From an uncultured Bacilli bacterium (lineage in GTDB: Bacteria; Bacillota_I; Bacilli_A; RFN20; CAG-826), in assembly GCA_944327845.1 (NCBI GenBank), contig CALVHN010000001.1, positions 9,149 to 73,148 on the forward strand: a DNA stretch of 64,000 bases, given 5' to 3'. Positions within the stretch are counted from its first letter, which is position 1; each line of letters begins with the position of its first letter. Below are positions 10,267 to 59,602 of the stretch, piece by piece. The translations under genes and the position numbers were made by a program. The notes under the pieces were generated by a model. It did no database searches and was not told the DNA's origin. It saw only the letters and a program-made list of their open reading frames with translations.

Positions 10267-10268
10267 AA

Positions 10269-10814: not shown

Positions 10815-10821
10815 TTGGTGA

Positions 10822-13085: not shown

Positions 13086-13093
13086 AAACTAGA

Positions 13094-36953: not shown

Positions 36954-37098
36954 AAAAAAAAAAAAAAATTTATTAAAATTAAATAAAAAAAAAAAAAAAA
37001 AAAGTAAAAAAAAAAAAAAAAAAATTAATAGAACAAATATAATAAAAAAAAATAACAAAATAAATGACCTAAAATAAAAAAAAAAAAAAAAAAAAAAA
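36954..37098. repeat. cluster of five homopolymeric poly(A) tracts (15, 19, 19, 9 and 23 nt) upstream of the surface-protein operon
   Basis: Direct reading: A15 at 36954-36968, A19 at 36985-37003, A19 at 37006-37024, A9 at 37044-37052, A23 at 37076-37098. A TTGACA -35-like hexamer follows at 37164. Confidence 0.9.
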
Positions 37099-37241
37099 CG
37101 ACCATTAAAATTAAATAGAAATAATGGATACAAAAGTAAGAAAAAAATAAAAAAAATTAAGGTTTGACACTATAAACCTTGACTATTTATCATTTGGCAC
37201 CATGCATAAATGGAAATAGATTTTTAAAAGGGGGATATATT

Positions 37242-37874
37242 ATGCATAAGAAATTTTTTACATTTGCTGTCCCATTATTAGGAGCAGCTGTATTAGTTGG
37301 TGCTGGTTTTTCTGCTTGGGTTTTCCAAGGTGAAGGATCTGCAAAAATTACTGGAACTATTAGTGTTACACCAGCTATTGATACCTTAAATGTTCAACTT
37401 TATAAAGATGCTAGCACTAAAGCAGATGAAGTTAGTGCTGTAACACTTACCTTAGATCAAGGTGGTGTAATGAATAATGATGTAACTAAAGGTGCAACCA
37501 CTGATGTTTCTTCGTATGATATTCTTGTTACTTTTACTGAAACAGATGGTGCTTTAGCTGCTTTATTTGATGATTTTCAGTTAACTTTAGATGCAGAAAT
37601 TAGTGTTACTGCTGCAACAAAAGGTGATGCATCTAGCGATATTTTAACAACTTTTATAAATTATGTTGATTTAACTGATGATTCTAAAACAGCAACTGGT
37701 AATTTTACCGTTTATGATGAAAATAGTTTTGTTATCGAAGACGTAGATTTATTATGGACTTATGCTCAAAAACCTACAAGTTATGGTGAATATAATGCAA
37801 TGAATACAGCATTAAGTGGTGCTAATTTTACCATTACTGTAAGAGTTACTGCAGATTGGACTCCTAGAATTTAA
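37242..37874 (+). CDS. secreted protein with a 'GAGFSAWVF' signal-peptide motif
   Basis: The ATG at 37242 is preceded by a GGGGGA ribosome-binding site. N-terminus 'MHKKFFTFAVPLLGAAVLVGAGFSAWVFQGEG'. The ORF track starts earlier, at 37179. Confidence 0.6.
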   Translation: MHKKFFTFAVPLLGAAVLVGAGFSAWVFQGEGSAKITGTISVTPAIDTLNVQLYKDASTKADEVSAVTLTLDQGGVMNNDVTKGATTDVSSYDILVTFTETDGALAALFDDFQLTLDAEISVTAATKGDASSDILTTFINYVDLTDDSKTATGNFTVYDENSFVIEDVDLLWTYAQKPTSYGEYNAMNTALSGANFTITVRVTADWTPRI

Positions 37875-37914
37875 TTAGATTTAAATAATAATTAATCACT
37901 AAATAAAAAGGAAA

Positions 37915-38595
37915 ATGTACTTACTTAATAAGATAAAAAATATTGCTATTCCACTTTTAGGATTTACTACATTAGTTTCAACAGGGTTTGGAGCATGGGT
38001 CTTTCTTGGATCCATGTCCAGCTCTTATGAAATTAGATCAACTCAAGTAAATGTTACAAGAGTTAATGATTCTATAGGTAAGCTTGAAATCAATGATAGA
38101 ATCCATCTTTATGAAACTCCATATATTTTAACTTTTGAAGTTGGAAGTGGAGAGGATTTTACAAGTAGTGAAGTTGGTGTTGAGCTTTCAAATAATATTG
38201 AATATAAATTCTATGAGTTTTATCAACCAGAAGAGAATTATGGATATTATTTAAGCTATAGAGTTATTTATAGTGCAAATAGTATTTATGATCAATATGT
38301 TGTAATAAAGGATTTAGCAAATTCTGGAACTAATGAAGCAGATGGAAGATTATATCAAGAATCTCATCAAATTTTATTAGATTCAAGGTTATTTAATGAA
38401 TCATCTACTTTAGATAAAGCAAATAATCCTTATTATGAACTTAATGATGATTTATACATTGACTTTAATTGGAAAGAACATACAAAACCAATTACCGCAA
38501 GTGCATATAATGCATTTTTATCTTCAGTACATGATTCAAGTATCAATTTACCAATCGAAATTGAATTAAAAATTACGTATCAACGAATAAATTAA
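37915..38595 (+). CDS. secreted protein with a 'TGFGAWVF' signal-peptide motif
   Basis: N-terminus 'MYLLNKIKNIAIPLLGFTTLVSTGFGAWVFLGS'. Second of three same-strand genes sharing the motif. Confidence 0.6.
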   Translation: MYLLNKIKNIAIPLLGFTTLVSTGFGAWVFLGSMSSSYEIRSTQVNVTRVNDSIGKLEINDRIHLYETPYILTFEVGSGEDFTSSEVGVELSNNIEYKFYEFYQPEENYGYYLSYRVIYSANSIYDQYVVIKDLANSGTNEADGRLYQESHQILLDSRLFNESSTLDKANNPYYELNDDLYIDFNWKEHTKPITASAYNAFLSSVHDSSINLPIEIELKITYQRIN

Positions 38596-38643
38596 TAATT
38601 AATAAATTTATTTACTCTATATGGAAAGGAGCAAAGCTTTAAA

Positions 38644-41022
38644 ATGAATAAAGTACTTTTGTTTTTTAAATCAAAACCGCTTGCTATTTTATTAATAGTA
38701 TTCTTTATTGTTTTTGGAAGCTTTGCTTCGATTGGTTTTTCTAATTGGATCTTTGAAAGTGAAACAACAGATACAAAAGACAATATTGGATTAGATTCAG
38801 ATCCAATTAGAGAAAATGCAACATTTAATGATGGCTTCGATGTTGTTGATCGAGGCATTCAAACATATGATGTTTATTTTATGGCTCAATCTGTGCCTTA
38901 TACTACTTTATTTGGTAATGATGGATTTAATCAAAATGAAAATAATCAAATTGTTCAACCTTACTATACCTGTATGAATTATGGATCAGCATATGGTTAC
39001 AATGTAAATTATGGTCATTTTGATCAATACGATAATGTTACTGATTGGGAATCAAATAACTTCAACAAATATTTTCTTAAATTCGAAAATAGAGCTGAAA
39101 TATCTATGAGTGATTTGGGTAATATTCCTAACCCAAAAAATAAATTAGTTGATGGAAATAATTGGCCAAAAGATGGCTCTGGTTTAAGATTTGCTGGATG
39201 GATGATTTATCCTTATGATATTTATTTTAAAGAAAGTGGTTCTCATTCTTTAAACCAAGTTTATGGTTGGTATCCTTCGGATATTCTTTCTTCGGACTCG
39301 TCAATTCCTGCTTTTGAATTATTTAATAGTAACGCTTTATTATCTACTTACGATAATATAGCAATTAATGTTAATGGAAAAAAATCATTATTTTTATTTC
39401 CTCTATTTACTACTAATAAAAATTATTACGAACAAAGAAATCAACGTCCACAAAATGTAAGAGATTCTATCTCTATACAGAAAAAAGAATCGAATGGTAA
39501 AAATTTAGGTGAAAACTATTTTATTTATAGTTCTAATTTATCTCAAGGTTTAAGAACTGAATTAGGTTTAAAGACTTCTGATACAAGCGTTAATGTTTTT
39601 CAAATTAATAATTATACGATTGATTCAAAAGATTATAACGATGCAAATATAAGAATAGATATCATAAATGATATGGATAGAAACGATGGATCGTGGGAAG
39701 GAAATCAAAATTTTTATCAGTATGGCGGTAAACATTATGTTCAAAACAGTGATACTTTTAGTGATACTTTTGAAGATAATTTTGATTTAAAAAAGAGCAG
39801 TGGAAGATTTAATATTTATCTAATTGTTAAAGAGGCTTATGATTCAAACAGTGGTGGTTTTAGTAGTCATGATTATAATTTTAATTTTGGAAATAACACT
39901 TTCTTAAAGACTGATATTCAGACTATAGATAGTTTTTTCTCTAATAATAATATTGGTAAATATATTTCATTTAATCTAGGTACTTATGTATCACGACATG
40001 AGAGTGGCGGTTGGCTTAGTTGGCATACATATGGTGATACAAGAGATTATTACATTTACTATGAAAGACTATATGAACCTCGTTTAATTGGTGGAGAAAC
40101 AAATGAATTAAATTATGATTCTGAACGTTCAATTTCCGATCACTTCGTCCGCCAAGGAACCAAAGAATATTTAAAAGATAGATATGAACTTGCTGGTGTT
40201 AATCTTGATGGTAGTCAAACTATTGAATTACCAATTTCTAATGGAAGAAGAACTATGCTAATTCCTAATTATTATTTTGGTATTCAATTAACTCCAGAAA
40301 ATTTCTTTACAACTTATACCTTTGCTTTTAAAGATGAGAGTCAAAACCAAACACCTGAATGGCCTAAATTAAAATTAGAAAATGATGATGAAGTTATTGA
40401 GCAACCATTTTCATCTTCATCAATGTTTAGAATTTATGATCCTGATAGAGACCATGATATCTATATTCGCGAAAGTAATGGTGAAGTGAAAACTCTTCAA
40501 GAAGCAAATTATGATTTTGATGCAAACCCTATAGAATTAATTAAACCTATTAATAAAGGAAACGATGCAATTGGTATTTATACAATCACAGTAGATGTTG
40601 AATATGGCGAAGATGGTTCAGGAAGAACTGTCCCAAAAACAATTTATATTTATGGATATCGACTTTTAAATATTTTTGTTAACATCTGCGATGATAAAAC
40701 ATTTAAAACTGGTTTAAGTCTTGGTGGAGATAGAAATAATAATTTTGTTGATACGAGCAGTTATTCTTATCGAAAAGATAATTATTACCAACTTCAAACT
40801 CTTACTTTAGAAGATAGATTTACAGATACAAATGATTCAAATGAAATAACTTTAGGAGAAATTTTAACTAATTTAAGTTCTCAAAATAAGTGTTTACAAG
40901 AATTAGTTACTCATAGATATATAACTTATGAATCATTAGATCCTAATAATAGTGAATATGTTCCTTTTGTTATACGTAAAAATTATGTATTTATGATTGT
41001 TGATAAACCAACAGCAAATTAA
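38644..41022 (+). CDS. large secreted protein (792 aa) with an 'IGFSNWIF' signal-peptide motif
   Basis: N-terminus 'MNKVLLFFKSKPLAILLIVFFIVFGSFASIGFSNWIFESE'. N/D/Y/G-rich extracellular composition. Confidence 0.6.
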   Translation: MNKVLLFFKSKPLAILLIVFFIVFGSFASIGFSNWIFESETTDTKDNIGLDSDPIRENATFNDGFDVVDRGIQTYDVYFMAQSVPYTTLFGNDGFNQNENNQIVQPYYTCMNYGSAYGYNVNYGHFDQYDNVTDWESNNFNKYFLKFENRAEISMSDLGNIPNPKNKLVDGNNWPKDGSGLRFAGWMIYPYDIYFKESGSHSLNQVYGWYPSDILSSDSSIPAFELFNSNALLSTYDNIAINVNGKKSLFLFPLFTTNKNYYEQRNQRPQNVRDSISIQKKESNGKNLGENYFIYSSNLSQGLRTELGLKTSDTSVNVFQINNYTIDSKDYNDANIRIDIINDMDRNDGSWEGNQNFYQYGGKHYVQNSDTFSDTFEDNFDLKKSSGRFNIYLIVKEAYDSNSGGFSSHDYNFNFGNNTFLKTDIQTIDSFFSNNNIGKYISFNLGTYVSRHESGGWLSWHTYGDTRDYYIYYERLYEPRLIGGETNELNYDSERSISDHFVRQGTKEYLKDRYELAGVNLDGSQTIELPISNGRRTMLIPNYYFGIQLTPENFFTTYTFAFKDESQNQTPEWPKLKLENDDEVIEQPFSSSSMFRIYDPDRDHDIYIRESNGEVKTLQEANYDFDANPIELIKPINKGNDAIGIYTITVDVEYGEDGSGRTVPKTIYIYGYRLLNIFVNICDDKTFKTGLSLGGDRNNNFVDTSSYSYRKDNYYQLQTLTLEDRFTDTNDSNEITLGEILTNLSSQNKCLQELVTHRYITYESLDPNNSEYVPFVIRKNYVFMIVDKPTAN

Positions 41023-41037
41023 GTTAAAGGAGAGAGT

Positions 41038-43392
41038 ATGGGACATTTAATTACTTTAGTAAATGCATCAAAGATTGAAGCAATCTCACTTGCAATATCA
41101 ATCACAGTCATCGTTCTTTTATTTATTACACTTGCAGTATCTTTATATTTATATTATCGATACTATAAAAAATGTATCGATAATAAGATTGAAGATTCAT
41201 ACATTAAAAATGAAATAAAAGGTGAAAATAAAAAGTTTTTTAAACGTTTTGAAAGCTTAAAAAATAATCAAGAATTAACTAAAGATCAAAAGATTGATAA
41301 ATATAATGAAGAATTATTAGTTGAATATGTTGATAATAAAATTGGTAATAATAATTTTATTAAAGTAATTGCTAATTTATTCTTAATTATTTTCTATGTT
41401 TGCTTAATTGCTATTATGGGTTTTGCTATTTATACTCGAAGCCAAGGAGATACTATTCCTCTTGGAAATAGCTATTATGTTGTTATCCAAACTGGATCAA
41501 TGGAAGAAAAAAATAGTGCAAATACTTACTTAGAAGAAAATAATTTAAATGATCAAATCGAGACATTTTCTTTAATTGGATTAGATTATGTTGATAGTCC
41601 AGATGAATTAGAACAATATGATATTGTTGCTTATTATGATGATGATAACAATTTAATTGTTCATAGAATTATTAATATTACTTATGATGAAAATAATAAT
41701 CCTATCTATACTTTAAGAGGTGATAGCAATACTTTCTCAAATAGTGATGAAAGAAGTTTAACTTTTGATGATATCGAAGGAAAATATAATGGATTTCAAA
41801 ATTTTGGCTTAGGTTTAACTATCAATTATATGAAATCTAATATTGGCATAATTGCTATATCTTTAGGCTTAATTTTAATTATGATCTATGACTACTTTGA
41901 TATCTTACTAGGTAAAAGAATTAAATTAAGAAAAGAAGAAATTTATCCTTTAATTGATGAAGAAAATATTAATACTTTAAAAGGTTTGACTTATGTTCCT
42001 GTTATTGAAGAAGAAGTTAAAGAAGAAACGATAGAAGAAATAAATGAAACACCTTTAGAAGAAGTTATTGAAAATAAAGAGGAAGTTTTAACTACAAATA
42101 GCGAAGAAAATAAAGATGAAATCTTAGTTAATCAAGAAATAAATAATGAAAATAATCTTCAAGATATAAATATTGAAACACAAGAAGAAAATAAACCTGA
42201 TATAGATGTAGTTGTTGTTCCTATTGTTCAAAAAACTAAAAAAGCTCGTAAAAAGATGATTCCATTTAACGATAAACTTTTAAGAGCAAGTGATGACTTA
42301 AAATTAAAATATGAATACTTAAGAGATTATATTTTAAGCTTTGGATTAAAACATCGTATTTCAAGACAATTTGATAATTATTCATTACATAGAGTGAGAT
42401 ATTTCTGTTTTGTTTTAAGAGGAAAAGCTTTATTTATTCACTTTAAACTTGATATTAATGATTATGCAGATTCAACAATTCCAGTTAAATTAGATGATAA
42501 AGTTAAATATCAGGATGTTCCAGTAATCTTTAAAGTTAAATCTAATCTTTCATTAAAACGTGCTAAATCTTTAATTGATGATGTTATGAGCAATGAAGGA
42601 TTTGAACAAAAATATGAATTTATCTCTCATTTTAATTTAAATGATATCGATGAAACTGAAGAAATTGAAGATGATTTTGAAGATGAATTTGATGATAATG
42701 ATTACGAAATTGAAGAAGTAGAAACTACTAATGAAAATAATGAAGAAGAAAAAGTAGTTGAAACTGATAATTTAAATGATAATGAAGCTTCTAATGAATC
42801 TATTGAAGATGATAATTCTAATGTCGAAATTAATAAAGAAGAATCTGATGAAGAAGAATTAAAAGACAATAATGAAGACACTGAAGATGAAAAAGATGTT
42901 GAAGTAGAAGAAGACTCTAACGACATCGAAGAAGAACAAAATATTTCTTTTGATTCACAAAATGAAGAAAATAATGATCAAGTTATTAAGGTTAAAAGAA
43001 AGAGAAATCCTGTTGTTAAACTTTCAACTAAACTTAATTTAATTCCTCAAGATTTAAAAGAAAAATATGATGAAATTATAAAATATGCTTCTAATTATGG
43101 ATTAAAAGGTAGAATTTCTAATACTCAATATACTTTTAGACTTCATAGAGTTACATATATTGTTGTTCAAATTAGAAATAATGCTTTAAGATTACATTTT
43201 AAACTTGAAGAATCTGATTTTGATGAAAATAATAAGATTCCATTTAAAAATGATTCAAAGAAAGCCAAGTTTATTGATACTCCAATCTTCTTTAAAGTTA
43301 AATCTAAATTATCTTTAAAAAGATGTAAAATGATGATTGATGTTTTAGCTAAAAAGTATAATTTTGAAAAGAAAGATGAATCTATAAATTAG
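41038..43392 (+). CDS. membrane protein carrying a SipW-type (S26B) signal-peptidase domain, an acidic linker and two tandem ~125-aa C-terminal domains
   Basis: Peptidase boxes 'VVIQTGSMEE' (Ser box), 'YDIVAYY...LIVHRII' (His box) and 'YTLRGDSN' (compare SipW 'SGSMEP', 'THRV', 'KGDNN'), flanked by transmembrane segments. Residues ~403-525 and ~645-775 are clearly paralogous ('...LHRVRYFCFVLRGKALFIHFKLD...FKVKSNLSLKRAKSL' against '...LHRVTYIVVQIRNNALRLHFKLE...FKVKSKLSLKRCKMM'). Confidence 0.5.
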   Translation: MGHLITLVNASKIEAISLAISITVIVLLFITLAVSLYLYYRYYKKCIDNKIEDSYIKNEIKGENKKFFKRFESLKNNQELTKDQKIDKYNEELLVEYVDNKIGNNNFIKVIANLFLIIFYVCLIAIMGFAIYTRSQGDTIPLGNSYYVVIQTGSMEEKNSANTYLEENNLNDQIETFSLIGLDYVDSPDELEQYDIVAYYDDDNNLIVHRIINITYDENNNPIYTLRGDSNTFSNSDERSLTFDDIEGKYNGFQNFGLGLTINYMKSNIGIIAISLGLILIMIYDYFDILLGKRIKLRKEEIYPLIDEENINTLKGLTYVPVIEEEVKEETIEEINETPLEEVIENKEEVLTTNSEENKDEILVNQEINNENNLQDINIETQEENKPDIDVVVVPIVQKTKKARKKMIPFNDKLLRASDDLKLKYEYLRDYILSFGLKHRISRQFDNYSLHRVRYFCFVLRGKALFIHFKLDINDYADSTIPVKLDDKVKYQDVPVIFKVKSNLSLKRAKSLIDDVMSNEGFEQKYEFISHFNLNDIDETEEIEDDFEDEFDDNDYEIEEVETTNENNEEEKVVETDNLNDNEASNESIEDDNSNVEINKEESDEEELKDNNEDTEDEKDVEVEEDSNDIEEEQNISFDSQNEENNDQVIKVKRKRNPVVKLSTKLNLIPQDLKEKYDEIIKYASNYGLKGRISNTQYTFRLHRVTYIVVQIRNNALRLHFKLEESDFDENNKIPFKNDSKKAKFIDTPIFFKVKSKLSLKRCKMMIDVLAKKYNFEKKDESIN

Positions 43393-43422
43393 GTTAATTC
43401 TCAATCATTCTTATTATTTATT

Positions 43423-43478
43423 ATCTATTCGATTTAAGTGAAAGATTATATCTTATTTAAATCGAATAGATTTTTATT
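43423..43478 (+). terminator. long-stem terminator after the surface-protein operon
   Basis: Perfect 15-bp inverted repeat ATCTATTCGATTTAA / TTAAATCGAATAGAT with a 19-nt loop, followed by TTTTATT. Confidence 0.5.
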
Positions 43479-43753
43479 ATTAAGAAAATTAAATCTATTT
43501 AATAATAGCATTATTAAATATAAGATTAATTATGGTTAATTATTTTTTGTCTTAACTCTATCTAATTATTTATTTTATCTTTAATTATTGAAAGTATTGG
43601 ATGTTTATTAATTAATAATATTATTAGTTTTAATTTAATTTATATTAGTACTTTATTAATGCTAGTACTTTTAATTATCTATTCTTTATTAATATTAAAA
43701 TCATTAAGATATATTAAAGAATAAGTTAATTTAAAGTAAAAAGCTTGCAAAAC

Positions 43754-44422
43754 TTAATTATTTTCTTTATTTTCTTTTTTCTCTTTAATTTTATTTTTAA
43801 TTAAATTATAAAGTGTAGGAGTATATTTAACTAAATAATAACCTAATATTCCGATAACTATTCCTAAACCCATTCCAGCAATAACATCGCTCATATAATG
43901 ATGAGATAAAAGAACACGAGTTAATCCCATAATAACAGCAAAGACAATAAAGAAAATCATAAATGGAAGATAAAATTTTCTTTCTTTTTTATTAAAGATA
44001 TATTCTATTGTAATTAAAGAAGCTACTGAAAAACATTCAAAGGTATGACCACTTGGAAAAGAAGCAGAAGAAGGAGCGATCCCATAAACTATTCCATCAT
44101 GATTAGTAATTGAAACTAATTGTGGTAGAAGTTCAGGATCTTCAAAAGGACGAGCGCGATCAAAGATATTTTTAAATATTAAATCATTAAAGATTAAAGC
44201 TAAGATAATTCCAACAAAACAGTAGATTCCTAATTTTCTAGTTTTCTTGAAGAATAAGAATAAAATCCCTGCTAAAATGAAGAATATTCCATAATCCCCT
44301 AAACTTGAAAAAGCGATAATTATATCTTGAAGGAAATGTGGCATCTTATCAAATAAATTAGAAAACCATATTGCAATTGAGTTATCAAACCCGTTTGACC
44401 AAATATTACTTAATATAAACAT
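43754..44422 (-). CDS. PAP2-family membrane phosphatase
   Basis: PAP2 motifs 'FPSGH' and 'SHHYMSD' ('SRxxxxxHxxxD'), and multiple transmembrane segments. Confidence 0.6.
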   Translation of the reverse strand: MFILSNIWSNGFDNSIAIWFSNLFDKMPHFLQDIIIAFSSLGDYGIFFILAGILFLFFKKTRKLGIYCFVGIILALIFNDLIFKNIFDRARPFEDPELLPQLVSITNHDGIVYGIAPSSASFPSGHTFECFSVASLITIEYIFNKKERKFYLPFMIFFIVFAVIMGLTRVLLSHHYMSDVIAGMGLGIVIGILGYYLVKYTPTLYNLIKNKIKEKKENKENN

Positions 44423-44426
44423 ATTT

Positions 44427-44852
44427 TTATAACCTCTCTTTCTTTTTTATATATTCGTATGCTAATGATAAAGTTTCTTTATCACTTTGATGAGTTAATA
44501 ATTGATAAGCTTCATTAAATGGATGGAATTCGATTTTGATAACTTCATTATCATGATTATCATAAGCTTTTTGATTATTATCAACAACTTTAGCAACATA
44601 AAATATCACATCTTTAATTATTCCTTCAAATGGAGAATATGTAATTGTATGAGAAAAATTTGTATCTAATAAGACATCAAGATTAGTTTCTTCTTTTATC
44701 TCTCTTAATGCTGTTTCACTTAATGTTTCATTTTTCTCTTGATGGCCTTTTACAAGTGAAATATGTCCTAAACTCATATATTCAATAAGAAAATATAATT
44801 TATTATTAATAAGTTTATATATAACAGCGCCTGAAGAAATTTCTTTTTTCAT
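44427..44852 (-). CDS. NUDIX hydrolase
   Basis: Nudix box 'GHQEKNETLSETALREIKEETNL' (GX5EX7REUXEEXGU pattern). Confidence 0.55.
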   Translation of the reverse strand: MKKEISSGAVIYKLINNKLYFLIEYMSLGHISLVKGHQEKNETLSETALREIKEETNLDVLLDTNFSHTITYSPFEGIIKDVIFYVAKVVDNNQKAYDNHDNEVIKIEFHPFNEAYQLLTHQSDKETLSLAYEYIKKKERL

Positions 44853-44918
44853 AGGTTAAATATTAATATATTTTCTTCTTGCTCGCAAGGCTATAAATGA
44901 GTATAATATTAAAGTATT

Positions 44919-44994
44919 GGGTGTTTAGCTCAGCTGGGAGAGCATCTGTTTGACGTACAGAAGGTCACAGGTTCGAGCCCTGTAGCACCCACCA
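44919..44994 (+). tRNA. tRNA-Val (GAC)
   Basis: Cloverleaf: acceptor GGGTGTT/AGCACCC, D-arm GCTCAGCTGGGAGAGC, anticodon stem TCTGT/ACAGA with loop TTGACGT, T-arm GGTTCGAGCC, and an encoded CCA. Confidence 0.8.
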
Positions 44995-45046: not shown

Positions 45047-45119
45047 GCACCAATAGTTCAGTGGTAGAACACTAGCTTCCCAAGCTAGTTATGCGGGTTC
45101 GATTCCCGTTTGGTGCTCC
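45047..45119 (+). tRNA. tRNA-Gly (anticodon loop TTCCCAA, read as CCC)
   Basis: Acceptor GCACCAA/TTGGTGC, D-arm TAGTTCAGTGGTAGAAC typical of tRNA-Gly, anticodon stem CTAGC/GCTAG, and T-arm GGGTTCGATTCCC. Confidence 0.7.
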
Positions 45120-45166
45120 GACTTATATTGAAATTAAGACTTAGGGTATATATGACTTAAGTCTTT

Positions 45167-45859
45167 TTATTTGCTATTTTCATCCTTTGAAATAAGTTCT
45201 TCTAAAAGAAGACCAACATTAGAACCAAGGTTATTTTTTAACATTTTTAAATCTTCACAGAAAAATTTCTCGTTTTTTATTGCTGTCTGGATTTTGTCTT
45301 TAAACTTTTCAAAATTTAAATTTGATTTTGTACAATTAAAAAAATCAGATAATTTAATTTCTAAAAATCTTTTTCCTCCTTTTCTAGTTTTTCGATTCTC
45401 TAACATCGCTTTAGGATCTAATGTAAAAATCTTATCATCATGCATTAATAAAAATAGTTCAAATGTTGGGTTAGAAAGACAAATATTATAGTTCTCATTT
45501 TCACATTTATTAAAGAATTCATCTAATTGTTCTTCTTTAAAGTTTTGTGGATCTCTATCTATTATAAAGAAAACTTTATCAATCTTTGGATCATAAGTAA
45601 TTTTATTGTCCTTAATTGATTTTTTAAAATTTTTAAGTTTAAGTAATGGATGGCTTTGTCCATTTTCATCAATCTCATTTTTTATTAACCTTATATCAAT
45701 TAAATAATTTATGTTTAAATAATCAGTATTTGCTTTTATACCTTGAAAATATTTAATTTCAGTAACATCTCCTTCAGTAACAATGAAGTATTTAGACTTT
45801 GGTTCGATATTACCTCTTTTTCTTGTTAAATTAAGATTATTTTCATTTAATTCTCTCAT
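45167..45859 (-). CDS. RloB-like protein (AbiLii-like partner of the AAA ATPase)
   Basis: N-terminal 'KYFIVTEGDVTEIKYF' and C-terminal 'FFIIDRDPQ...CLSNPTFELFLLMH' match the RloB-family pattern (IVCEGEKTE...SNPcFElWlLLH). Translationally coupled to the upstream ATPase. Confidence 0.6.
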   Translation of the reverse strand: MRELNENNLNLTRKRGNIEPKSKYFIVTEGDVTEIKYFQGIKANTDYLNINYLIDIRLIKNEIDENGQSHPLLKLKNFKKSIKDNKITYDPKIDKVFFIIDRDPQNFKEEQLDEFFNKCENENYNICLSNPTFELFLLMHDDKIFTLDPKAMLENRKTRKGGKRFLEIKLSDFFNCTKSNLNFEKFKDKIQTAIKNEKFFCEDLKMLKNNLGSNVGLLLEELISKDENSK

Positions 45860-47277
45860 TAATAATTATCTCCAATTGAAGACGTGACTTCAAAAGTTGG
45901 TATGCCTCCATATCGACCTTCTAAATACGCTTTATCAATTTTTTTATCAAATCTTTCGTTATATTTTTCTAATGAATAAAGGGTAGTTGGACCATTTTTG
46001 TCTCTATCTGTAAACCATATTTCATCTCTTCTTAATAAATTGAAATCTAACAATCTCGATTCATGAGTAGTAACGACTAATTGGCTATTTTCTGTTGCTT
46101 CAAGAAAATATTTAACAAATTCATAAGTTAATTCTGGATGAAAACATCTATCTAATTCATCGATAAAGTATACTTTTTCTCCTTTTGTATTTAAAAGTAC
46201 ACCAATTAAATCAAATAATCTTTGTGTTCCATCTGATTCTTCGATAAATAAATAATCACCATCATTGTTTTTATGGTTTAAAACTACTTTCTTAACATTA
46301 TATTGATTATTGTCTCGATTAATAAAAAACATTTCTCGGTTGATGCGTAAAGAAACTAATGGTTTTTCAGTAATGTTATTTTTAACTCGGTTAATATAAG
46401 CGGTATCTAAATTATTTAACATATTTTTTAAAAATTCTGGTGGAAGATTTAAACTTAATAATTCATCTAAAGAACTATCAACTAAATTACATTGACTTAT
46501 ACCTGTTCCAAATTTTGAAATTAATTCATTAATTTTATTAAGACTTTCTTCAGATAAAAATAGTGGAGAAGAGTCTAAACTTAATTGTGGGAATATTATA
46601 ACTAATGAGTTTAAAAACCAATTATAAATATCTTTAAAAATAGTTACATTGTTGTCGTTATATTCTCGATATAAGGTATCTTTATTTTTATTCATAATTG
46701 TTAAAAACAAAATAGTATCTTGATCTTTCATATCTGAATAATAAACATCTAACCTTTTTAAGATTTCTTTGTTGTTATTGAAATAATTGTTATCTAGATT
46801 AATGTTTTCGTGTAATTTACGATTAAAAATTAATTCTTCTTTATTTGATTTTTTATTAAGTTTATATAGCCATTCAGCTTTAATGCTATTTTTGGATAAC
46901 AAAATGTCAAAGCCGTAGGCATATAAATTATTATTAATTTCAATTTCAAAATCAAAAGAGCTCATTTTATCTTTATTTTCGGTATTTATTCGACAATATA
47001 AATTAGAACAATTTCCTCTAATACCACTTAATATTATATTTTTAGCAAAGGAAACGGCTTTTATTAAATTTGATTTTCCTGAAGAATTAGCTCCATAAAT
47101 TGCAGAAAATTTTAATAGTTTTAAATCATTATTTTTTTTAATGATGTGATTCTCTTTTTTTTTTGTACTTCCTGCAATCATCGAAAGTTCTTGTTCTTCT
47201 TGAAAAGATAAATAGTTTGATACTTTGAAATTGATTAACATTTTTTCTCCTTTAAAATGTGAAATTTTCACATTCAT
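45859..47277 (-). CDS. AAA-family (ABC-like/RloA-AbiLi-like) ATPase
   Basis: Walker A 'SAIYGANSSGKSNLIKA', a Q-loop region, Walker B 'VYFIDELDRCFHPE', and a D-loop/H-motif 'VVTTHESRLLD'. Its stop overlaps the start of the RloB-like gene. Confidence 0.7.
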   Translation of the reverse strand: MNVKISHFKGEKMLINFKVSNYLSFQEEQELSMIAGSTKKKENHIIKKNNDLKLLKFSAIYGANSSGKSNLIKAVSFAKNIILSGIRGNCSNLYCRINTENKDKMSSFDFEIEINNNLYAYGFDILLSKNSIKAEWLYKLNKKSNKEELIFNRKLHENINLDNNYFNNNKEILKRLDVYYSDMKDQDTILFLTIMNKNKDTLYREYNDNNVTIFKDIYNWFLNSLVIIFPQLSLDSSPLFLSEESLNKINELISKFGTGISQCNLVDSSLDELLSLNLPPEFLKNMLNNLDTAYINRVKNNITEKPLVSLRINREMFFINRDNNQYNVKKVVLNHKNNDGDYLFIEESDGTQRLFDLIGVLLNTKGEKVYFIDELDRCFHPELTYEFVKYFLEATENSQLVVTTHESRLLDFNLLRRDEIWFTDRDKNGPTTLYSLEKYNERFDKKIDKAYLEGRYGGIPTFEVTSSIGDNY

Positions 47278-47857
47278 ATATATTAATATATTATTTTTTA
47301 ATTTTTTTCAATATTTAACTATATTTTTATGTGAAAAAATCACATTTATGATATTTTTTAATAAATATCTTTTATTTAATCAAAATTATATTAATAAAGA
47401 TATTTTATAAATGTATCTTGTTGAGATGAATATAAAAAATCTTTTGTAATATTTTTAATAAAAAAACTTGATATCATTTGTTAGATTTTAGATAACAAGT
47501 TTCTAAAATTAGAGATTAATTTATGTCAAATAAAACATCTAGATTAATTATAGGTGTTTAAAGTATTAATTTTTTAATATCAATTAATCTAAAAACTACA
47601 CTAACAATGCAGTTAATAAAATTAATTTGAAGTATTTTTAAATTAAAAAAATAATATAGAAAAAAGGAATCATAAAAAAGTTAATTAATGTTAGTAATTC
47701 AACTTTATTTACTAATTCTTAAAACCTTTTAGAATTTAAGATTCAATAATTATTTTCTTTTTAAATTCAATCTTCTTATTTAAAAAAGTATTTTAAGTTT
47801 AGCGATTTATAACATTTTTAATTAAGCGATTTAAAAATATAAAGTTAAAGAATTGTT

Positions 47858-48695
47858 TTAATTAATTTCCTTTATTTCATCAATAATAGATTTATTTTTC
47901 TTTTTATATATAACATAAAAAGATTGAGTTGCTTCTTTATCTAAAATTGGTAAACAAATACGATTTTTATTTTCTCTCATATATAAAGTAATATTAGTGG
48001 CAAAAGCTGGAATAGAAGAAGCATCAATTATATCTTGAAGTTCATTTTTATTTTGATAGAAAAATCGAGAATTAGGTAATTTTTCTTTAATAATATTTTT
48101 CCAAATTCCAATATCATTTAATACTAAAAAAGATTGTCCATCTAAATCATTAAAAGTTATTCCATCTTTTTTAAAAGAAAGAAAATGATTTAATGGTAAA
48201 GAAGCAAATAATTTTTCTTCCATTATTTTTTCACAAATTATTTTATCATTTATAAAAGGATGATTAATAAAAGCAATATCTTTTGTACCATTTATAATGT
48301 CATTTATGCATTCATTTTCTTCTTCTATACATAAATTAAAGTGGTGTTTAGCTTTATTAAAAATAAAACAATTTGGAAATTTAAAGGTTGGACCGGGAGC
48401 AGTTAATGCAACTTGATAGGTAAGTTCTTTAAGTTTTAATTCTTTTGCTTTTTCTTTTAATCTTTCTTCTAAAGAAATGATGTTTTTAACATATTCAGCA
48501 ATTATTTTTCCATTTTCATTAATAATAATTTTATTAGGAAAACGATCAAATAATTTAAGATCTAATTCATCTTCTAACTTTTGAATTGCTTTAGTAATAG
48601 AAGGTTGAGAAATAGAAAGCTTTTCACTAGCTTTAAGAATAGTACCTTCTTCATAAACTGCTAAAAAAATATTCTAATAAATATGATTCAATCAT
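47858..48695 (-). pseudogene. LysR-family transcriptional regulator, frameshifted in an A7/T7 run 11 codons from the start
   Basis: Minus-strand ATG at 48695 gives 'MIESYLLEYF' and then shifts frame inside the T7 run (plus A7 at 48663-48669). The +1 frame continues as the LysR helix-turn-helix 'LAVYEEGTILKASEKLSISQPSITKAIQKLEDELDLKLFDR' with no stops through to 47858. The ORF track reports only the distal 121 aa. Confidence 0.55.
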
Positions 48696-48801
48696 TTTTA
48701 AGTTCTAGTATTCTTTATAATTATACTATTATGCATAATCAATATAAACATCTTTTCATAAATACTAATACAATTAAGTTATAAGGAGTTTAAAAAAGAA
48801 G

Positions 48802-49269
48802 ATGAAAAATTTAATTGTATACTTTACTTGGTCTAATAATACTAAAAAATTAGTATTAGATATAAATAAAGAATTTAATTTTGATATATTAAGAATAGAT
48901 CGTAAAAAACCATATTCAGAAAACTATAATACTTGTGCTTATGTTGAAGCAAAAGAAGAAGTTTCAAAACATATTTTTCCTGAAATAAGTGATTTTAGCG
49001 TTGATTTTAATGAATATAACAATATTTTACTATTCTTTCCAATATGGTGGTATACATTTCCAATGGTAATTGGAACTTTTATTAAAAAGATAAAAGGTTT
49101 TAAAGGAAATGTATATTATTTTGCAAATAGCTATACCAATGATTACCAATATATGATTAATGTAAGAAGAGATTTGTTAAAAATTGATTCAAGTATCAAT
49201 TTTAAAGAAGGGTTATTTAATAAAAATTTAAAAGATCATATTGATTTTATTAGAAGGGAGGTTAAATAA
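48802..49269 (+). CDS. flavodoxin-family protein (cytoplasmic paralog)
   Basis: 'LIVYFTWSNNTKKL' and 'FFPIWW' parallel the flavodoxin motifs of the downstream lipoprotein ('VVYFSATGNTE', 'GAPVWW'). Confidence 0.45.
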   Translation: MKNLIVYFTWSNNTKKLVLDINKEFNFDILRIDRKKPYSENYNTCAYVEAKEEVSKHIFPEISDFSVDFNEYNNILLFFPIWWYTFPMVIGTFIKKIKGFKGNVYYFANSYTNDYQYMINVRRDLLKIDSSINFKEGLFNKNLKDHIDFIRREVK

Positions 49270-49270
49270 T

Positions 49271-50131
49271 ATGAATACTTTTGAACTTAGTAATGGTGTT
49301 AAAATTCCAGAAAATGGATTTGGCGTTTATCAAGTTAGTAAAGAAGATTGTATAAAAAGTGTTTTATCAGCTTTAAAGGTTGGATATCGACATATCGATA
49401 CTGCTCAATCATATTTTAATGAAAGTGAAGTTGGAGAAGGTATTAAAGAAAGTGGTATTGATAGAAAAGATATCTTTTTAACTACTAAAGTATGGATTGA
49501 TAATTATGGAGAAAATAAAACTTATCAATCGGTTATTGAATCAATGAAAAAGTTAAAAACCGATTACTTAGATTTAATTCTTCTTCATCAACCAGTTAAT
49601 GATTATTATGGAGCGTATCGAGATTTAGAAAAACTTTATAAAGAAGGTAAAGTTAGAGCAATCGGTGTTTCTAATTTTTATAGTGATAGATTAGTTGATT
49701 TATGTTTATTTAGTGAAATTAAACCAATGGTTAATCAAATAGAAGTTAATCCATTCAACCAAAGAGAAGAAGATAAAAAATGGGCAGATAAATATGGAGT
49801 GTTACTTGAAGGATGGGCTCCTTTTGGAGAAGGAAGAAACAATATGTTTACTAATCCTACCCTTTTATCTATTGCTTCTAAACATCGTAAATCAGTTGCT
49901 CAAGTTATTTTACGTTGGCTTTATCAAAGAGGAATCGTATCTTTAGCTAAATCAATTCATGAAGAAAGAATCAAAGAAAATAATGATATTTATGATTTTT
50001 CATTAGATGAAGCTGATTTAGAAAGAATTAGATTATTGAATACAAATCAATCATTATTTTTCTCTCATCAAGATCCAAATATGATTGAATGGTTTGGTAA
50101 TTTAATTATTGAAAGAAGAAACAAAAAATAA
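49271..50131 (+). CDS. aldo/keto reductase
   Basis: AKR signatures 'GYRHIDTAQSYFNE', 'LDLILLHQP', 'IGVSNF'. The ATG at 49271 follows a GGAGG ribosome-binding site. Confidence 0.8.
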   Translation: MNTFELSNGVKIPENGFGVYQVSKEDCIKSVLSALKVGYRHIDTAQSYFNESEVGEGIKESGIDRKDIFLTTKVWIDNYGENKTYQSVIESMKKLKTDYLDLILLHQPVNDYYGAYRDLEKLYKEGKVRAIGVSNFYSDRLVDLCLFSEIKPMVNQIEVNPFNQREEDKKWADKYGVLLEGWAPFGEGRNNMFTNPTLLSIASKHRKSVAQVILRWLYQRGIVSLAKSIHEERIKENNDIYDFSLDEADLERIRLLNTNQSLFFSHQDPNMIEWFGNLIIERRNKK

Positions 50132-50134
50132 TAA

Positions 50135-50758
50135 GTGGAGAAAAATATGAAAAAATTTACATCAATTTTAACATTATGTAGTTTATTTATTTTAGTAGGT
50201 TGTTCTTCAAATATACAAAATAATGATGAAGCTGGGGGAGAACAAGAAACCCCAATATATCAAGATGGTAATGCAATTGTTGTTTATTTTTCAGCTACAG
50301 GTAATACTGAAAATGTTGCTAATTATATTAGTGAACATATTGAAGCTCCATTATATGAACTAGAACCTGTTGATCCATATACATCAGAAGATTTAAATTA
50401 TTCAAATCAAAGTAGTCGAGTTGTTCTTGAACATAATGATCCTAATAGACATGTTGAACTTGAAACTGTTACATTCGAAGGATTTGATGAAGCTAGTTAT
50501 ATCTTTTTAGGAGCACCAGTATGGTGGCAAGAACTTAGTTGGGTTGTTGATGATTTTGTTGAACTAAATGATTTTACAAATAAGACAATTATTCCTTTTG
50601 CAACCTCTTCTTCATCTAGTTATTCAATTGATAATTTAAAGGAATTAGCTCCTGAAGCAACCTGGTTTGATGAAACAAGATTTTCTTCTAGAGTTAGTGA
50701 ATCTCAAGTTATTGAATGGGTTGATAGCTTAGGAATTGATTTTAGAAGTGAAAATTAA
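50135..50758 (+). CDS. flavodoxin-family lipoprotein
   Basis: Lipobox 'FILVGCSS', then flavodoxin motifs 'IVVYFSATGNTENVANYI' and 'GAPVWW'. Confidence 0.6.
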   Translation: MEKNMKKFTSILTLCSLFILVGCSSNIQNNDEAGGEQETPIYQDGNAIVVYFSATGNTENVANYISEHIEAPLYELEPVDPYTSEDLNYSNQSSRVVLEHNDPNRHVELETVTFEGFDEASYIFLGAPVWWQELSWVVDDFVELNDFTNKTIIPFATSSSSSYSIDNLKELAPEATWFDETRFSSRVSESQVIEWVDSLGIDFRSEN

Positions 50759-50769
50759 GAAAGAGATAA

Positions 50770-51700
50770 ATTGAAGTTGTTTCTTTTTAGAAATTCAAAT
50801 ATTACTTCAATTGTTTACCTAATAGTATAAGAGAAATTGGAAATAATGCTTTTTATAATTGTTTTAATTTAAAAAAGTATTAATGCGTTTTCGGGGTATA
50901 ATACTTTAGAAAATATTAATATCCCTGCTAAAGTTAACTTAATTTTAGAAAATTCCTTTAATAATTGTTCTTTAATTAATTTTGATGTTGATAATGATAA
51001 TAGGAATTATTATTCATTAAATGGTTATCTTATTAAAAGAAGTAGTAACACTTTAATTAGAACTAGACAAATGGTGTTATTCCTGAATGAGTTTTAATTA
51101 TTGGGTATAAAGCTTTTATAAATTCAACATTACCTTCAATATCTTTTCTAGTCTAGTTAATGAAATTGCTTCTAATGCCTTTTATTTTAATGATAATTTA
51201 AAAGGTATAAATGTTGATTAAAATAATGAATTAATATAATGTTCCTTTAGGAATTGAAGGATATATTGAATTATTAAATATAAATATAATTTCAAGTTTT
51301 TCTATTTGAGGATGTAGATTAACTTTTATTATCAAGGTATTTTAGAAGAATGGAATTTAATTAAAAAACATTCTACATAGAATATAAATATAAATATTGA
51401 TGTTGAATATTTATATTAAATAAAGGGAGAAGATATAATGAAATTAAATATATTTATCAATTAGATAAAATGATGAATATTATGGAAGTGAAACTTTAAT
51501 AAATGGTTATAATAAGATAGTTAATATATATCTTAATAAAGGTTTAAATATTAAAACAGTAAATCAATTAGTAACATTAGATGTTAAATCTCATTCATAT
51601 TTTTAGATAATGGAGTTACTTATGAACATGGTGTAACTAATCTGTATGCTCACGATGAAAAGATAATGGGATAGTTGTTTGATTGATAAAAATTTACAAA
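50770..51700 (+). pseudogene. decayed BspA-type leucine-rich-repeat surface-protein pseudogene
   Basis: Frame fragments 'LPNSIREIGNNAFYNCFNLKK', 'INIPAKVNLILENSFNNCSLINFDV', and 'YYSLNGYLIKRSSNTLIRT' are typical BspA-like LRR units. Frequent stops in all frames. Confidence 0.4.
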
Positions 51701-51826
51701 AATAGATTATTTTTACAAGGTTTTTAATGAAAATATCGATTCTGTATTTTTATAAATTATTATTTATTTTTTAAATATTTTTTGGTTTATAAATGGTATA
51801 ATATTATAAATTGTTAATTAATTAAT

Positions 51827-51891
51827 AAAAAAGTCCTGAAGCCAGGACATATGTGATGACATAAGTTTTATTTGAACTTGTTATGTTATCT
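51827..51891 (-). ncRNA. tracrRNA of the type II-A system (predicted)
   Basis: Minus-strand RNA 'AGAUAACAUAACAAGUUCAAAUAAAACUUAUGUCAUCACAUAUGUCCUGGCUUCAGGACUUUUUU'. Its 5' part pairs with the CRISPR repeat as a 12-bp upper stem (GUUAUGUUAUCU), a bulge, and a 5-bp lower stem (UUUGA), the same architecture as the S. pyogenes repeat:anti-repeat duplex. A terminal hairpin GTCCTG-AAGC-CAGGAC plus U6 lies at 51827-51848. -35 TTGACT is at 51921-51926 and -10 TATTAT at 51898-51903, with a 17-nt spacer, both on the minus strand. Confidence 0.6.
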
Positions 51892-51931
51892 ATAAAAATA
51901 ATAATTCTTAAAAATAAAGGAGTCAAGTTTT

Positions 51932-54900
51932 ATGGCAGAAAAGTTGTTATTAGGTTTAGATATTGGAACTAATAGTGTTGGTTGGTGTTTAACAGATGAG
52001 AATTCGAAAATAATAAAAAAGAATGGAAAATATTTATGGGGAATTAGATTATTTGATGAATCTAAATCATGTAAAGATAGAAGAATTTATCGATCAACAA
52101 GAAGGAGATGTGCTAGAAGAAAACAAAGGTTAGCATTACTCCAAGATTTATTTGAAAAACCGATGTCTAAAATTGACCCATATTTTTTTAGAAGGCTTAA
52201 GGTTTCTCAAATTAAAAACGAAGATAGAAATGATGAATTTAATTTGAGTGAATATAAAAATAAATATTTATTCTCTGACCATCAAGAAGAAATAGAATTT
52301 TATAACAAATATCCAACAATCTATCATCTAAGATTAGCTTTAATTAATTCTAACGAAAAAATCGATTTAAAATATTTATATTTAGTCTGCGCACATTATA
52401 TTAAATATCGTGGGCATTTTTTATTCGAAGGACAAGATTTTAATGTTGAAAACGGTGCAAGCATTGCACAAAGTTTAAATTGTTTATTAAATGAAGATAA
52501 TGAAAATAATGTTTTGTTTGAAACTAAGGATCTCGATGAAATATATGATATTTATTCAAATAAAAAATTAGATAAAAAAGATAAAGTTAATAAAATTAGA
52601 GATTATTTATTTAATAAAGTTTATGAAGTAAATAATGATGAAAATGAAAAAATATATTTAGGATATATTGCTCAATTATTTTTAGATTCTAAAGTTGATG
52701 CTAAAAAAATTTATAAAGATAAGGACTTAGATTTAGATAATACAACAATAAGTTATGATTCTGATGATTTTGATTCGATTATTGATGAATTAATAAACGT
52801 CTCTTCTGATTATGATATAGATTCATCTTTTTTTGAAAATATAAAGGAATTAAAGAAAGTATATGATTACTTAAAGTTAAAAAATATTTTAGGAGATTCG
52901 ATTTATATATCAGAAGCAATTGTTAAAAGATTTGATAAACATAAGGAAGATTTAATAAAGTTAAAGAATTTTGTAAAAACAAATTTTGATAGAGAAACAT
53001 ATAAGAAGGTATTTATAAATGTTGATGATAAAGTTTGTAATTACCCTCATTTTGTCGGTTCTTCTTTAGTTAAAGGGAAAAAGAAAACAATTTCAAAATG
53101 TAAAAAAGATGATTTTTATAAATTTTTAGAAACTACATTAAATATTAAAAGAAATGAAATAGTTAAAGAAGAAAATGAATTAAGTGATAAAGAATATATT
53201 GAAAAAAGAATGTATGATGGAACTTTTTTAGAATTATTACGTTCAAGTCAAAATAGATTTATACCTTATCAATTAAATAAAAAAGAATTAGAAATTATTT
53301 TAAATAATCAATCTAAATATTATGAATTTTTAAATGAAAGTGATGATTATGGAACAGTTAAAGATAAAATAATAAGTTTATTAACATTTAAAATCCCATA
53401 TTATGTTGGTCCATTAAACGAATCTAGTAAATTTGCTTGGATTAAGAAAAAACAAAATCAAAAAATTACTCCTTGGAATTTTAATGATATTGTTGATAAA
53501 GATGCATCTGAAAATGAGTTTATTAAACGAATGGCAAATCATTGTTCTTATTTGTTCAAAGAAGAAACCTTGCCTAAAGAATCACTTCTTTATCAAGAAT
53601 ATGAACTTTTATCTACATTAAATAAACTTTATATAAATAATCAGCCAATAACTAATGAGATAAAAACTTTCTTAATTGATGTATATAAAAATAGAGGTAC
53701 TAAAATTAGTTTAAAAGATTTAAAAAGAATAATTAGTGATAGATTTGGTGATGGAAATGAAATAATTTTAACGACATCCAATGATAAAGAATTAGATGAA
53801 AATTATTTATCCGATTCTTTAAGTTCTTTTAAAAAGTTTTCTAATATTTTTGGAAAAAATTATGTTGAAAGTAATGTTGAAAAAATTGATCAAATAATTT
53901 CAATATGTACAATTATATCTGATAAAAATAGATTAAAAGATTATTTAATAAAAGAATTTAAATTGAATGAAGAGGATGCAATTAAAGTATCTAAATTAAA
54001 GTTTTCTAAATTTGGTAGACTTTCAAATAAACTTCTCTGTAAGTTAAAAGGAATCGATTCAAAAACTGGTGAAGTTATATGTGATAAGAGTATTATCCAA
54101 TTAATGAGAGAAACTAATCAAAACCTTATTGAAATTATAAATAATAAAAAATATGGCTTTCCTGCAGCAATTAATTTAGAAAATAGCGAATTTTTAAAAG
54201 AAAAATATGGAAATAAAGAATTATCTGATGAACAAAAGATTTTAGATTTCATTGATAAACTTTATATTTCTCCAAAATTAAAAAGACCATTAATTCAAGC
54301 AATGAAGATTATTAATGAACTTGAAAATATAATGGGTTCAAAAGAAAAAGGTAAAAGGTCAATCGATGAATATTATATTGAAGCAACTAGAGGACCAGAT
54401 ATAAAAGCAAAAGGTAAAGCAACAAAAAGTAGAAGGCAAAAGATGCTCGAAATTTATAAAGATGCAAAAGATTTTGTCGATGAATATGATAGCAGCAAAG
54501 CAATTTTATCTAATTTAAATGGAGTTGAGGATTCCAGATTAAATAGTAAAAAAGTTTTCTTGTATTTTAGACAATTAGGAAAGGATCTTTATACTGGTAA
54601 TCCAATTGATTTTGATAGATTAGAAACTGATTACGATATTGATCATGTATTTCCTCAATCTAAAATTAAAGATGATAGTTTTGATAATTTAGTTTTAACT
54701 TTAAAGGAAAATAATTCAGATAAAGGTGATATATATCCAATTCCTTATGATAGTTTTCGTGAAAAGCATAATTGGTCTAGTAAAATAAGAAATAGATTTT
54801 TTGAAAAACTGCATAAAAATAAATTTATAAGTGAAACTTTATATCATAGATTAACAAGACTAACTCCATTAACTGAAAATGAATTATTTAATTTTGTTAG

Positions 54901-58095: not shown

Positions 58096-58098
58096 TAA

Positions 58099-58225
58099 AA
58101 TTATATTGATAAAATAAATTTTATCAAAAAATAAAGACGAATTATGTCTTTATTAAAGTTATTGTTTCAAGCCTAAAACAGGTAATTAATTCTAAAATCT
58201 CTGTTATTTGTTTATATAATTTGAG
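58099..58225 (+). promoter_or_regulatory. CRISPR leader
   Basis: AT-rich 127-bp region between the csn2 stop and the first repeat. Confidence 0.5.
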
Positions 58226-59571: not shown

Positions 59572-59602
59572 TCTTATATATTGTTAATCACGGATATAAA
59601 AT

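Follow-up and report, generated by a model that had tools for sequence, protein, structure and literature searches.

A conserved pair of GTGA-N5-TCAC palindromes upstream of an AbiL/RloAB-type two-gene cassette in an uncultured Bacilli bacterium

We examined a 64,000-nucleotide stretch of DNA (the window) from an uncultured Bacilli bacterium (assembly GCA_944327845.1, contig CALVHN010000001.1, positions 9,149 to 73,148 of the forward strand). It carries a two-gene module, encoding an AbiLi-like ATPase and an RloB-like putative nuclease, that is preceded by two palindromes with the extended form ATGTGA-N5-TCACAT. We consider it likely that this module is a self-contained anti-phage cassette of the AbiL/RloAB type, belonging to the OLD-like group and presumably repressing itself through the pair of palindromes, which we refer to as operators O1 (proximal) and O2 (distal). 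Most close relatives from Bacillota and Fusobacteriota have the operator pair as well, and it is apparently undescribed; a literature search, whose coverage did not extend to the 1999 AbiL paper, returned no mention of the motif or of RloAB/AbiL operon regulation.

An earlier note, made from the letters of the window alone, had drawn attention to the distal palindrome, TGTGA-N5-TCACA, as a possible operator about 55 bp upstream of the module. The repeat is indeed present at the position given there (Table 1), and the distance holds when it is counted from the ATG of the longest ATPase open reading frame (ORF; 53 nt), but not when it is counted from the probable true ATG, which is 89 nt away. 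The proximal palindrome was overlooked in that note because it lies inside the falsely extended part of the ORF. The two sites are separated by 72 bp, centre to centre, and O1 falls between the putative -10 box and the ribosome-binding site (RBS) of the ATPase gene; these promoter boxes were assigned by analogy with homologues that have clear TTGACA and TATAAT hexamers. TGTGA-N5-TCACA occurs exactly twice in the 64 kb, against 0.05 copies expected, and two or more copies were obtained in none of 100 shuffles. Both sites are kept in all 12 same-species contigs that span the region.

We then compared the region upstream of the ATPase gene across the family. Loci with an ATPase alignment came from metagenomes (80), viral contigs (36) and genomes (3); operator statistics were calculated on 90 unique loci, with the 150 nt 5′ of the ATPase start as the search zone. 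The exact core, GTGA-N5-TCAC, was found at 3.72 per kb in this zone and at 0.021 per kb elsewhere, a 176-fold difference, with matches outside the upstream regions at about background level (13 in 617 kb of flanks). The spacing was strict, there being 50 exact upstream matches at N5 and none at N3, N4, N6 or N7. When one mismatch was allowed, the upstream matches rose to 83, compared with 2.2 ± 1.5 in shuffled upstream regions, and at least one site was present in 59 of the 90 loci and at least two in 28. The distance between sites was 61–64 bp in 21 cases and 71–73 bp in six, corresponding to about six and about seven helical turns respectively.

These figures bear on the simplest alternative, which is that the palindromes are chance products of AT-rich intergenic DNA, or else RNA hairpins, as the 17–23% G+C of the region and the short arms might lead one to suspect. 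Both sets of shuffles speak against it, as does the placement of the sites, since in most loci the proximal one is part of the -35/-10 spacer, which is not transcribed, and the distal one is upstream of the promoter. We regard this alternative as effectively refuted.

In most loci the proximal site itself constitutes the spacer between the two promoter hexamers, in the form TTGACA-aaaGTGAAAAAATCACa-TATAAT in anchored alignments. The window belongs to a minority in which the site stands just after the -10 box and before the RBS, a geometry it shares with plasmid p77 of Bacillus mycoides and with loci L086, L108, L109 and L114. The left half of the distal site is often degenerate, reading ACGA or GAGA. 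The closest non-identical ATPase relative, at 69% identity, was found by a scan of genome contigs in a metagenome-assembled genome of an uncultured Clostridia (L022); there, two copies of AGTGAAAAAATCACA stand about 73 bp from each other, with the proximal copy exactly filling the 17-nt TTGACA/TATAAT spacer, in an entirely different context of type I restriction–modification (R-M) genes and genes for a metallophosphoesterase and an Mrr-like nuclease. Plasmid p77 carries both sites in exact form at a distance of 72 bp, the promoter spacer of the cassette on a Fusobacterium varium plasmid contains the proximal one, and sites are also found on viral contigs. The Agrobacterium homologue has a one-mismatch site only, and no site was found at the Treponema homologue, whose ATPase gene has a NUDIX-like gene as its partner, or at the homologue on a Geminocystis plasmid.

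The presence of the operator followed the relatedness of the ATPase, falling from 82% of loci at 40% identity or above to 52% at 36–40%, 40% at 30–36% and one of five below 30%. It was retained where the flanks reach about 56% G+C, the cassette itself being at 33–38%. Clustering of the flanks revealed no gene family common to more than four of 83 loci, and no third partner gene. Two independent loci with a solo ATPase gene and no RloB, L086 and L088, keep the sites; in L088 three operator-like sites stand at exact 62-bp intervals (730–900), the last of them in a TTGAAA/TATACT promoter spacer. The cassette has conserved its operator pair in different phyla and genomic contexts and in hosts of different G+C content, and the operator idea of the earlier note gains considerably from finding a conserved, promoter-embedded pair across the family; that a protein binds the sites is what we infer from this pattern.

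We envisage that a dimeric DNA-binding activity would occupy both operator sites cooperatively and on one face of the helix, because the spacing between the sites varies by one helical turn. The bound repressor would block RNA polymerase and so repress the operon. It is probably a product of the cassette itself, because the two genes and the sites are all that travels together from phylum to phylum and on plasmids and viral contigs. Of the two products, the ATPase may be the one that binds, a choice weakly favoured by the retention of sites at solo ATPase genes. In the NetFlax study, AAA proteins were found to neutralise TOPRIM_OLD toxins (PMC10440598); by analogy with these pairs and with PARIS, the ATPase would hold the RloB nuclease inactive and would sense infection. 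On a trigger, the released RloB would cut host or phage nucleic acid and thereby abort the infection, and the loss of repression would replenish the system. We put forward more tentatively, as a possibility with somewhat less than even chances, that an ABC-ATPase/TOPRIM complex without a canonical DNA-binding domain recognises the phased operators, and that release of the nuclease also derepresses the operon.

Several observations weigh against self-repression. Neither the ATPase nor RloB has a DNA-binding domain that is recognisable by Pfam or in the structural models. The alignment columns of the ATPase that separate operator-bearing from operator-lacking loci are scattered and form no clean feature, and an insertion of about 90 residues found in many RloB homologues does not correlate with the presence of the operator. 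The weak promoter hexamers of the window failed a consensus promoter scan. The AbiL-like pair of the lactococcal prophage proPhi7, an experimentally studied lactococcal-type relative, has no operator. Finally, the hosts that are clearly operator-positive all appear to be Bacillota, Fusobacteriota or AT-rich organisms without assignment.

The lack of a DNA-binding domain in either protein, and the confinement of the clearly positive named hosts to Bacillota and Fusobacteriota, also favour a different explanation, namely that the palindromes bind a conserved host factor, such as a CRP/FNR-, Rex- or other dimeric helix-turn-helix (HTH)-type protein, that links the cassette to host physiology, and that the cassette proteins do not bind DNA. 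The TGTGA/TCACA half-sites do resemble CRP/FNR and Rex boxes. The spacing of CRP/FNR and Rex operators is TGTGA-N6-TCACA, however, and not one exact upstream match was found at N6. We consider a host factor rather unlikely because of this strict N5 spacing, because the motif is absent elsewhere in the sampled DNA, apart from the background level in the flanks and with no copy in the rest of the window, and because its presence tracks the phylogeny of the ATPase and not host G+C content. The site, moreover, accompanies the cassette to unrelated contexts and onto plasmids and viral contigs.

Both genes of the presumably self-repressed cassette lie on the minus strand, and the region has the same composition as the window (about 25% G+C). 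The earlier note had described the RloB-like gene as encoding a coupled partner of 230 amino acids (aa), and so it appears: the ATPase stop and the RloB start overlap by 1 nt (...TAT TAATG AGA...), and a GGAG lies 11 nt 5′ of the RloB ATG. Because the stop and start codons have one base in common, the sequence confirms the translational coupling that was predicted for the pair. The same order, with the RloB gene directly following the ATPase gene on the same strand, was seen in 86 homologous loci that were fetched. An 8-bp inverted repeat, AAGACTTA ... TAAGTCTT, with a 14-nt loop and a following T-run, occupies 45136–45165 in the gap that separates tRNA-Gly from the RloB stop and may act as a weak shared terminator; a consensus promoter/terminator scan called no terminator, the repeat being under its G+C threshold.

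The length of 472 aa given for the ATPase in the earlier note has to be revised, as the true start is most likely the second ATG of the long ORF, at 47241 (M13), which yields a protein of 460 aa. Directly 5′ of this ATG is AAAGGAGAAAAA, with AGGAG 6 nt before the start codon, and an equivalent start, MLI(R/N)FKVSN, is found in all 28 aligned ATPase homologues. Gene calls for the ten contigs listed give 460 aa in eight, a 5′-truncated gene in one and 472 aa in one. We also favour the shorter protein because the 36 nt between the two ATGs contain the regulatory palindrome.

The assignment of the ATPase to the RloA/AbiLi type, which the earlier note had based on its motifs, stood up well. The protein matches Pfam AAA_21 (PF13304) with 100.4 bits (cut-off 27, E = 2.6e-28) and PADLOC AbiLi (PDLC02335) with 264 bits (E = 3.3e-79), the top of 46 matches and far above AriA (the secondary match, E = 3e-27), HEC-01A, PtuA, mad3 and housekeeping ABC models. 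NCBIfam MAD3 (NF047739) scored 20 bits against a cut-off of 420, and we therefore do not count the module among MADS systems. The catalytic motif set is that of a full Rad50/SMC-type ATPase, with all four motifs present and invariant among 29 homologues (Table 1). In an AlphaFold2 model with a predicted local distance difference test score (pLDDT) of 81, the nearest folds were the heads of Rad50, Septu PtuA, retron-associated PtuA, JetC and OLD (E about 1e-8 to 1e-9); sequence and profile searches of the PDB, PARIS structures included, found no relative of either the ATPase or RloB. The family is large, with more than 5,600 proteins at E ≤ 1e-10 among 8,000 candidates scored. The C-terminal tail of the ATPase, RFDKKIDKAYLEGRYGGIPTFE (residues 430–451; 45889–45954), is almost invariant in homologues although its pLDDT is below 50, and is a candidate peptide for docking RloB or another subunit.

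The small protein likewise bears out the RloB signature reported for it. It matches Pfam RloB (PF13707) with 91.1 bits (cut-off 31.5), its residues 24–222 covering profile positions 1–195 of 195, and its sole PADLOC match is AbiLii (PDLC02337, E = 2.3e-18). Its predicted structure has a four-strand alpha/beta core in which the Glu after strand 1 and the DxD that define a TOPRIM domain are both found, and these residues are invariant (Table 1); the model shows disorder over the first 20 residues, a basic stretch. It comes nearest to the TOPRIM regions of Thermus scotoductus OLD, class 2 OLD and GajA, although a Foldseek search against the PDB gave no significant match. We conclude that RloB is probably a TOPRIM-like nuclease with an OLD-like predicted fold. 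RloB homologues in the group at 40–46% identity (many of L023–L084) are about 310 aa long, owing to the internal insertion of about 90 aa mentioned above. Searches with Pfam, PADLOC and NCBIfam models turned up neither of the two outcomes by which the earlier note had said its reading could fail, a small protein missed by RloB models and an ATPase that groups with housekeeping ABC proteins. Judged by sequence, the module is an ordinary further member of the AbiL/RloAB anti-phage family.

AbiL has been grouped with PARIS, Gabija, OLD and MADS3-4 as an ABC-ATPase/TOPRIM system, and its mechanism is open (PMC11464382, PMC13064643). The module shares with AbiL of Lactococcus lactis pND861 and with Campylobacter RloA/RloB the order of ATPase then RloB, both genes being required in AbiL, and it has the composition by which PADLOC defines AbiL, AbiLi with an adjacent AbiLii on the same strand, here with a 1-nt overlap. 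It differs in being chromosomal, in a host of about 25% G+C, with its nearest non-identical homologue at 69%, and in the paired GTGA-N5-TCAC operator of its clade, which was not found in the lactococcal prophage pair. PARIS (AriA and AriB) likewise combines a Rad50-like AAA_15/21 ATPase with a separate TOPRIM-type effector, and shares a tree of systems with AbiL (PMC11464382). Where PARIS has the DUF4435 protein AriB as its effector, the module has RloB (PF13707), Pfam and PADLOC giving only RloB/AbiLii. OLD and Gabija GajA, to whose TOPRIM regions the RloB model is nearest and of which OLD also matches the fold of the ATPase, have ATPase and TOPRIM fused, whereas the module has two separate proteins. 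Gabija also needs the UvrD-like GajB; no helicase gene is adjacent to the module, and the only UvrD-like gene of the window is AddA (26136–29243), which is paired with AddB. In contrast to Septu, the partner is RloB and not the HNH nuclease PtuB, and the PtuA matches are weak (E = 2.5e-10 or worse).

Type II toxin–antitoxin (TA) operons have in common with the module a bicistronic, coupled layout and a palindromic operator that overlaps the core promoter and is accompanied by an auxiliary upstream site. Promoter-overlapping operators are typical of such loci; most homologues of the module have theirs over the core promoter, and the window has its site between the -10 box and the RBS. Unlike a type II antitoxin, the protein presumed to play this part here is a 460-aa ABC ATPase without an HTH, ribbon-helix-helix or AbrB domain, and it is only presumed to bind the operator. 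One might nevertheless suppose that the pair is mainly a selfish TA (addiction) module, or an R-M accessory, and not a phage sensor. The name Rlo, for 'R-linked ORF', reflects the R-M context in which these genes were originally found, and two close homologues, L022 and L152, lie directly behind type I hsd genes. AAA/TOPRIM_OLD pairs, furthermore, behave as TA pairs (PMC10440598). We think this distinctly unlikely as an account of the cassette, since no R-M genes lie near the module in the window, most homologues are not R-M-linked, and lactococcal AbiL owes its definition to a phage-resistance phenotype (Deng et al. 1999, cited in PMC13064643); a module can, in any case, both behave as a TA pair and abort infections.

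The position of the anti-phage cassette next to two tRNA genes raises the question of how it arrived there. The earlier note had placed the start of the module 48 bp after a tRNA gene, a classic island insertion point. The adjacency is real, the RloB stop codon being 47 nt from tRNA-Gly(ccc), but the operon faces the tRNA with its 3′ end rather than its start, because the genes on the minus strand converge with the tRNAs. Rfam found nothing in the window besides the tRNAs. In a relative with 92% DNA identity over 37079–44994 (L145), homology extends precisely to the 3′ end of tRNA-Val, 44994, and no further, and a hydrolase gene follows, with no tRNA-Gly and no AbiL; in another (L148, GCA_964548325.1, about 72% identity) the match stops exactly at the end of tRNA-Gly(ccc), 45119. 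After that tRNA, L148 carries a different, defence-like cargo of ThsB-TIR-like, Peptidase_C14 (caspase-like) and HNH_5 genes (10192–14597). A further junction at tRNA-Gly, in L009, was rejected as an assembly chimera, its sequence being 99.98% identical as far as the 5′ end of the tRNA, where a different acceptor stem takes over.

Because the synteny of relatives breaks exactly at tRNA 3′ ends, we describe the tRNA flank as a variable, defence-rich hotspot rather than a demonstrable integrative island. The cassette could still be the cargo of an integrative island that targeted tRNA-Gly/tRNA-Val and has since lost its mobility genes, a view to which the breaks in L145 and L148, the other defence-like genes of the latter and the CRISPR-Cas locus and IS3-family transposase within 15 kb lend some credit. 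It is unlikely, however, given that no integrase ORF was found within 45120–51900, that there is no att-like direct repeat of a tRNA 3′ end, and that the G+C content of the module matches its surroundings; the island claim of the earlier note thus stood only as regards the breaks in synteny. The distribution of the module argues in the same direction. Any tRNA was present in the flanks of only three of 124 homologous loci, and cassettes usually stand alone, surrounded by housekeeping or R-M genes. The surroundings of close homologues are unrelated: the cassettes of L022 and L152 follow type I hsd genes, and those of L153–L155 have pseudouridine synthase, ABC transporter or sporulation genes around them. 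As to presence or absence at the same tRNA, which the earlier note had proposed as a check, the module is in every sampled strain of this organism, and other genes stand at the tRNA 3′ ends of the relatives L145 and L148. The identical RloB and the neighbouring NUDIX protein were found on at least 19–23 metagenome contigs, with the module in the same context wherever contigs were long enough, and a look-up by the exact NUDIX neighbour found no empty-site strain.

Table 1. Positions in the window of the cassette, its putative control elements and neighbouring features.
Feature	Position	Strand	Remarks
tRNA-Val(gac)	44919-44994	+	Rfam; convergent with the module
tRNA-Gly(ccc)	45047-45119	+	Rfam; convergent with the module
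RloB/AbiLii TOPRIM-like putative nuclease	45167..45859	-	230 aa
RloB NPTFE134	within 45440-45475	-	E134 catalytic-type, invariant
RloB D101-x-D103 (D101-R-D103)	within 45548-45565	-	catalytic-type residues, invariant
RloB E29	within 45758-45781	-	catalytic-type residue, invariant
ATPase, longest ORF	45859..47277	-	472 aa
AbiLi-like ABC (Rad50/SMC-type, AAA_21) ATPase	45859..47241	-	460 aa from probable true start
H-loop TTHE	46060-46071	-	invariant in 29 homologues
Walker B VYFIDELD	46150-46173	-	IDELD invariant in 29 homologues
ABC signature SDGTQR	46219-46236	-	invariant in 29 homologues
Walker A GANSSGKS	47071-47094	-	invariant in 29 homologues
5′ part of longest ORF, probably falsely extended	47242..47277	-	12 codons; contains proximal operator and RBS
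RBS GGAG of ATPase gene	47247..47250	-	read from sequence
Proximal operator O1, ATGTGAAATTTTCACAT	47257-47273	.	core GTGA-N5-TCAC; 15-nt pattern 47258-47272
Putative sigma-70-type promoter	47283..47311	-	-35 TTGAAA 47306-47311, 17-nt spacer, -10 TATTAA 47283-47288
Distal operator O2, ATGTGAAAAAATCACAT	47329-47345	.	contains TGTGA-N5-TCACA, 47330-47344
LysR-type regulator gene, just upstream of module	47858-48694	-	split by +1 frameshift in T-run near 48650
Type II-A CRISPR-Cas locus, complete	51932-59572		cas9 51932-56260, cas1 56260-57132, cas2 57122-57442, csn2 57439-58095
CRISPR array	58226-59572		about 20 copies of 36-nt repeat GTTTGAGAGTTATGTTATCTACGGTCGGTCTTGAAC
IS3-family transposase (HTH and rve domains)	59635-61137	-	immediately after CRISPR array

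Past the module, the window continues with the frameshifted LysR gene, flavodoxin and aldo-keto reductase genes, the type II-A CRISPR-Cas locus, which begins 4.6 kb from the AbiL module, and the IS3-family transposase, a possible outer boundary of the variable region. The T-run that breaks the LysR gene has seven Ts in the window and in five contigs, and six in five other same-species contigs, in which the gene is intact (278 aa); the run length could distinguish lineages, or else it could switch the gene on and off by strand slippage. On the other side of the tRNAs, two adjacent proteins of 792 and 784 aa with acidic, repeat-rich middles are encoded on the plus strand (38644–43392); they have no Pfam or PADLOC match, and the pair is kept in L145 as proteins of 801 and 797 aa. 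The AddB-like (PD-(D/E)XK) and AddA-like (UvrD) genes at 23734–29243 are in the most AT-rich part of the window (18–22% G+C), and it is as a homologous helicase, not as part of a Gabija system, that AddA draws PADLOC matches to GajB.

Taken by itself, the module is one more routine entry in a large family of defence systems with an unsolved mechanism. The operator pair, by comparison, is a concrete and cheap experimental handle on the control logic of AbiL/RloAB systems, with which one could address which component binds, whether there is TA-like autorepression and whether infection relieves the repression; cultured hosts are at hand, as Bacillus mycoides p77 and the Fusobacterium varium plasmid bear the same sites. 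In genomes, the motif could be used to mark the clade, and it helps to correct start-codon calls, because the 472-aa annotation swallows the operator. If the more tentative proposal of operator recognition by the ABC-ATPase/TOPRIM complex is true, a Rad50-like defence sensor would bind DNA in a sequence-specific manner, and the spread of this two-gene cassette on its own would be explained by a control circuit that is portable and independent of the host.

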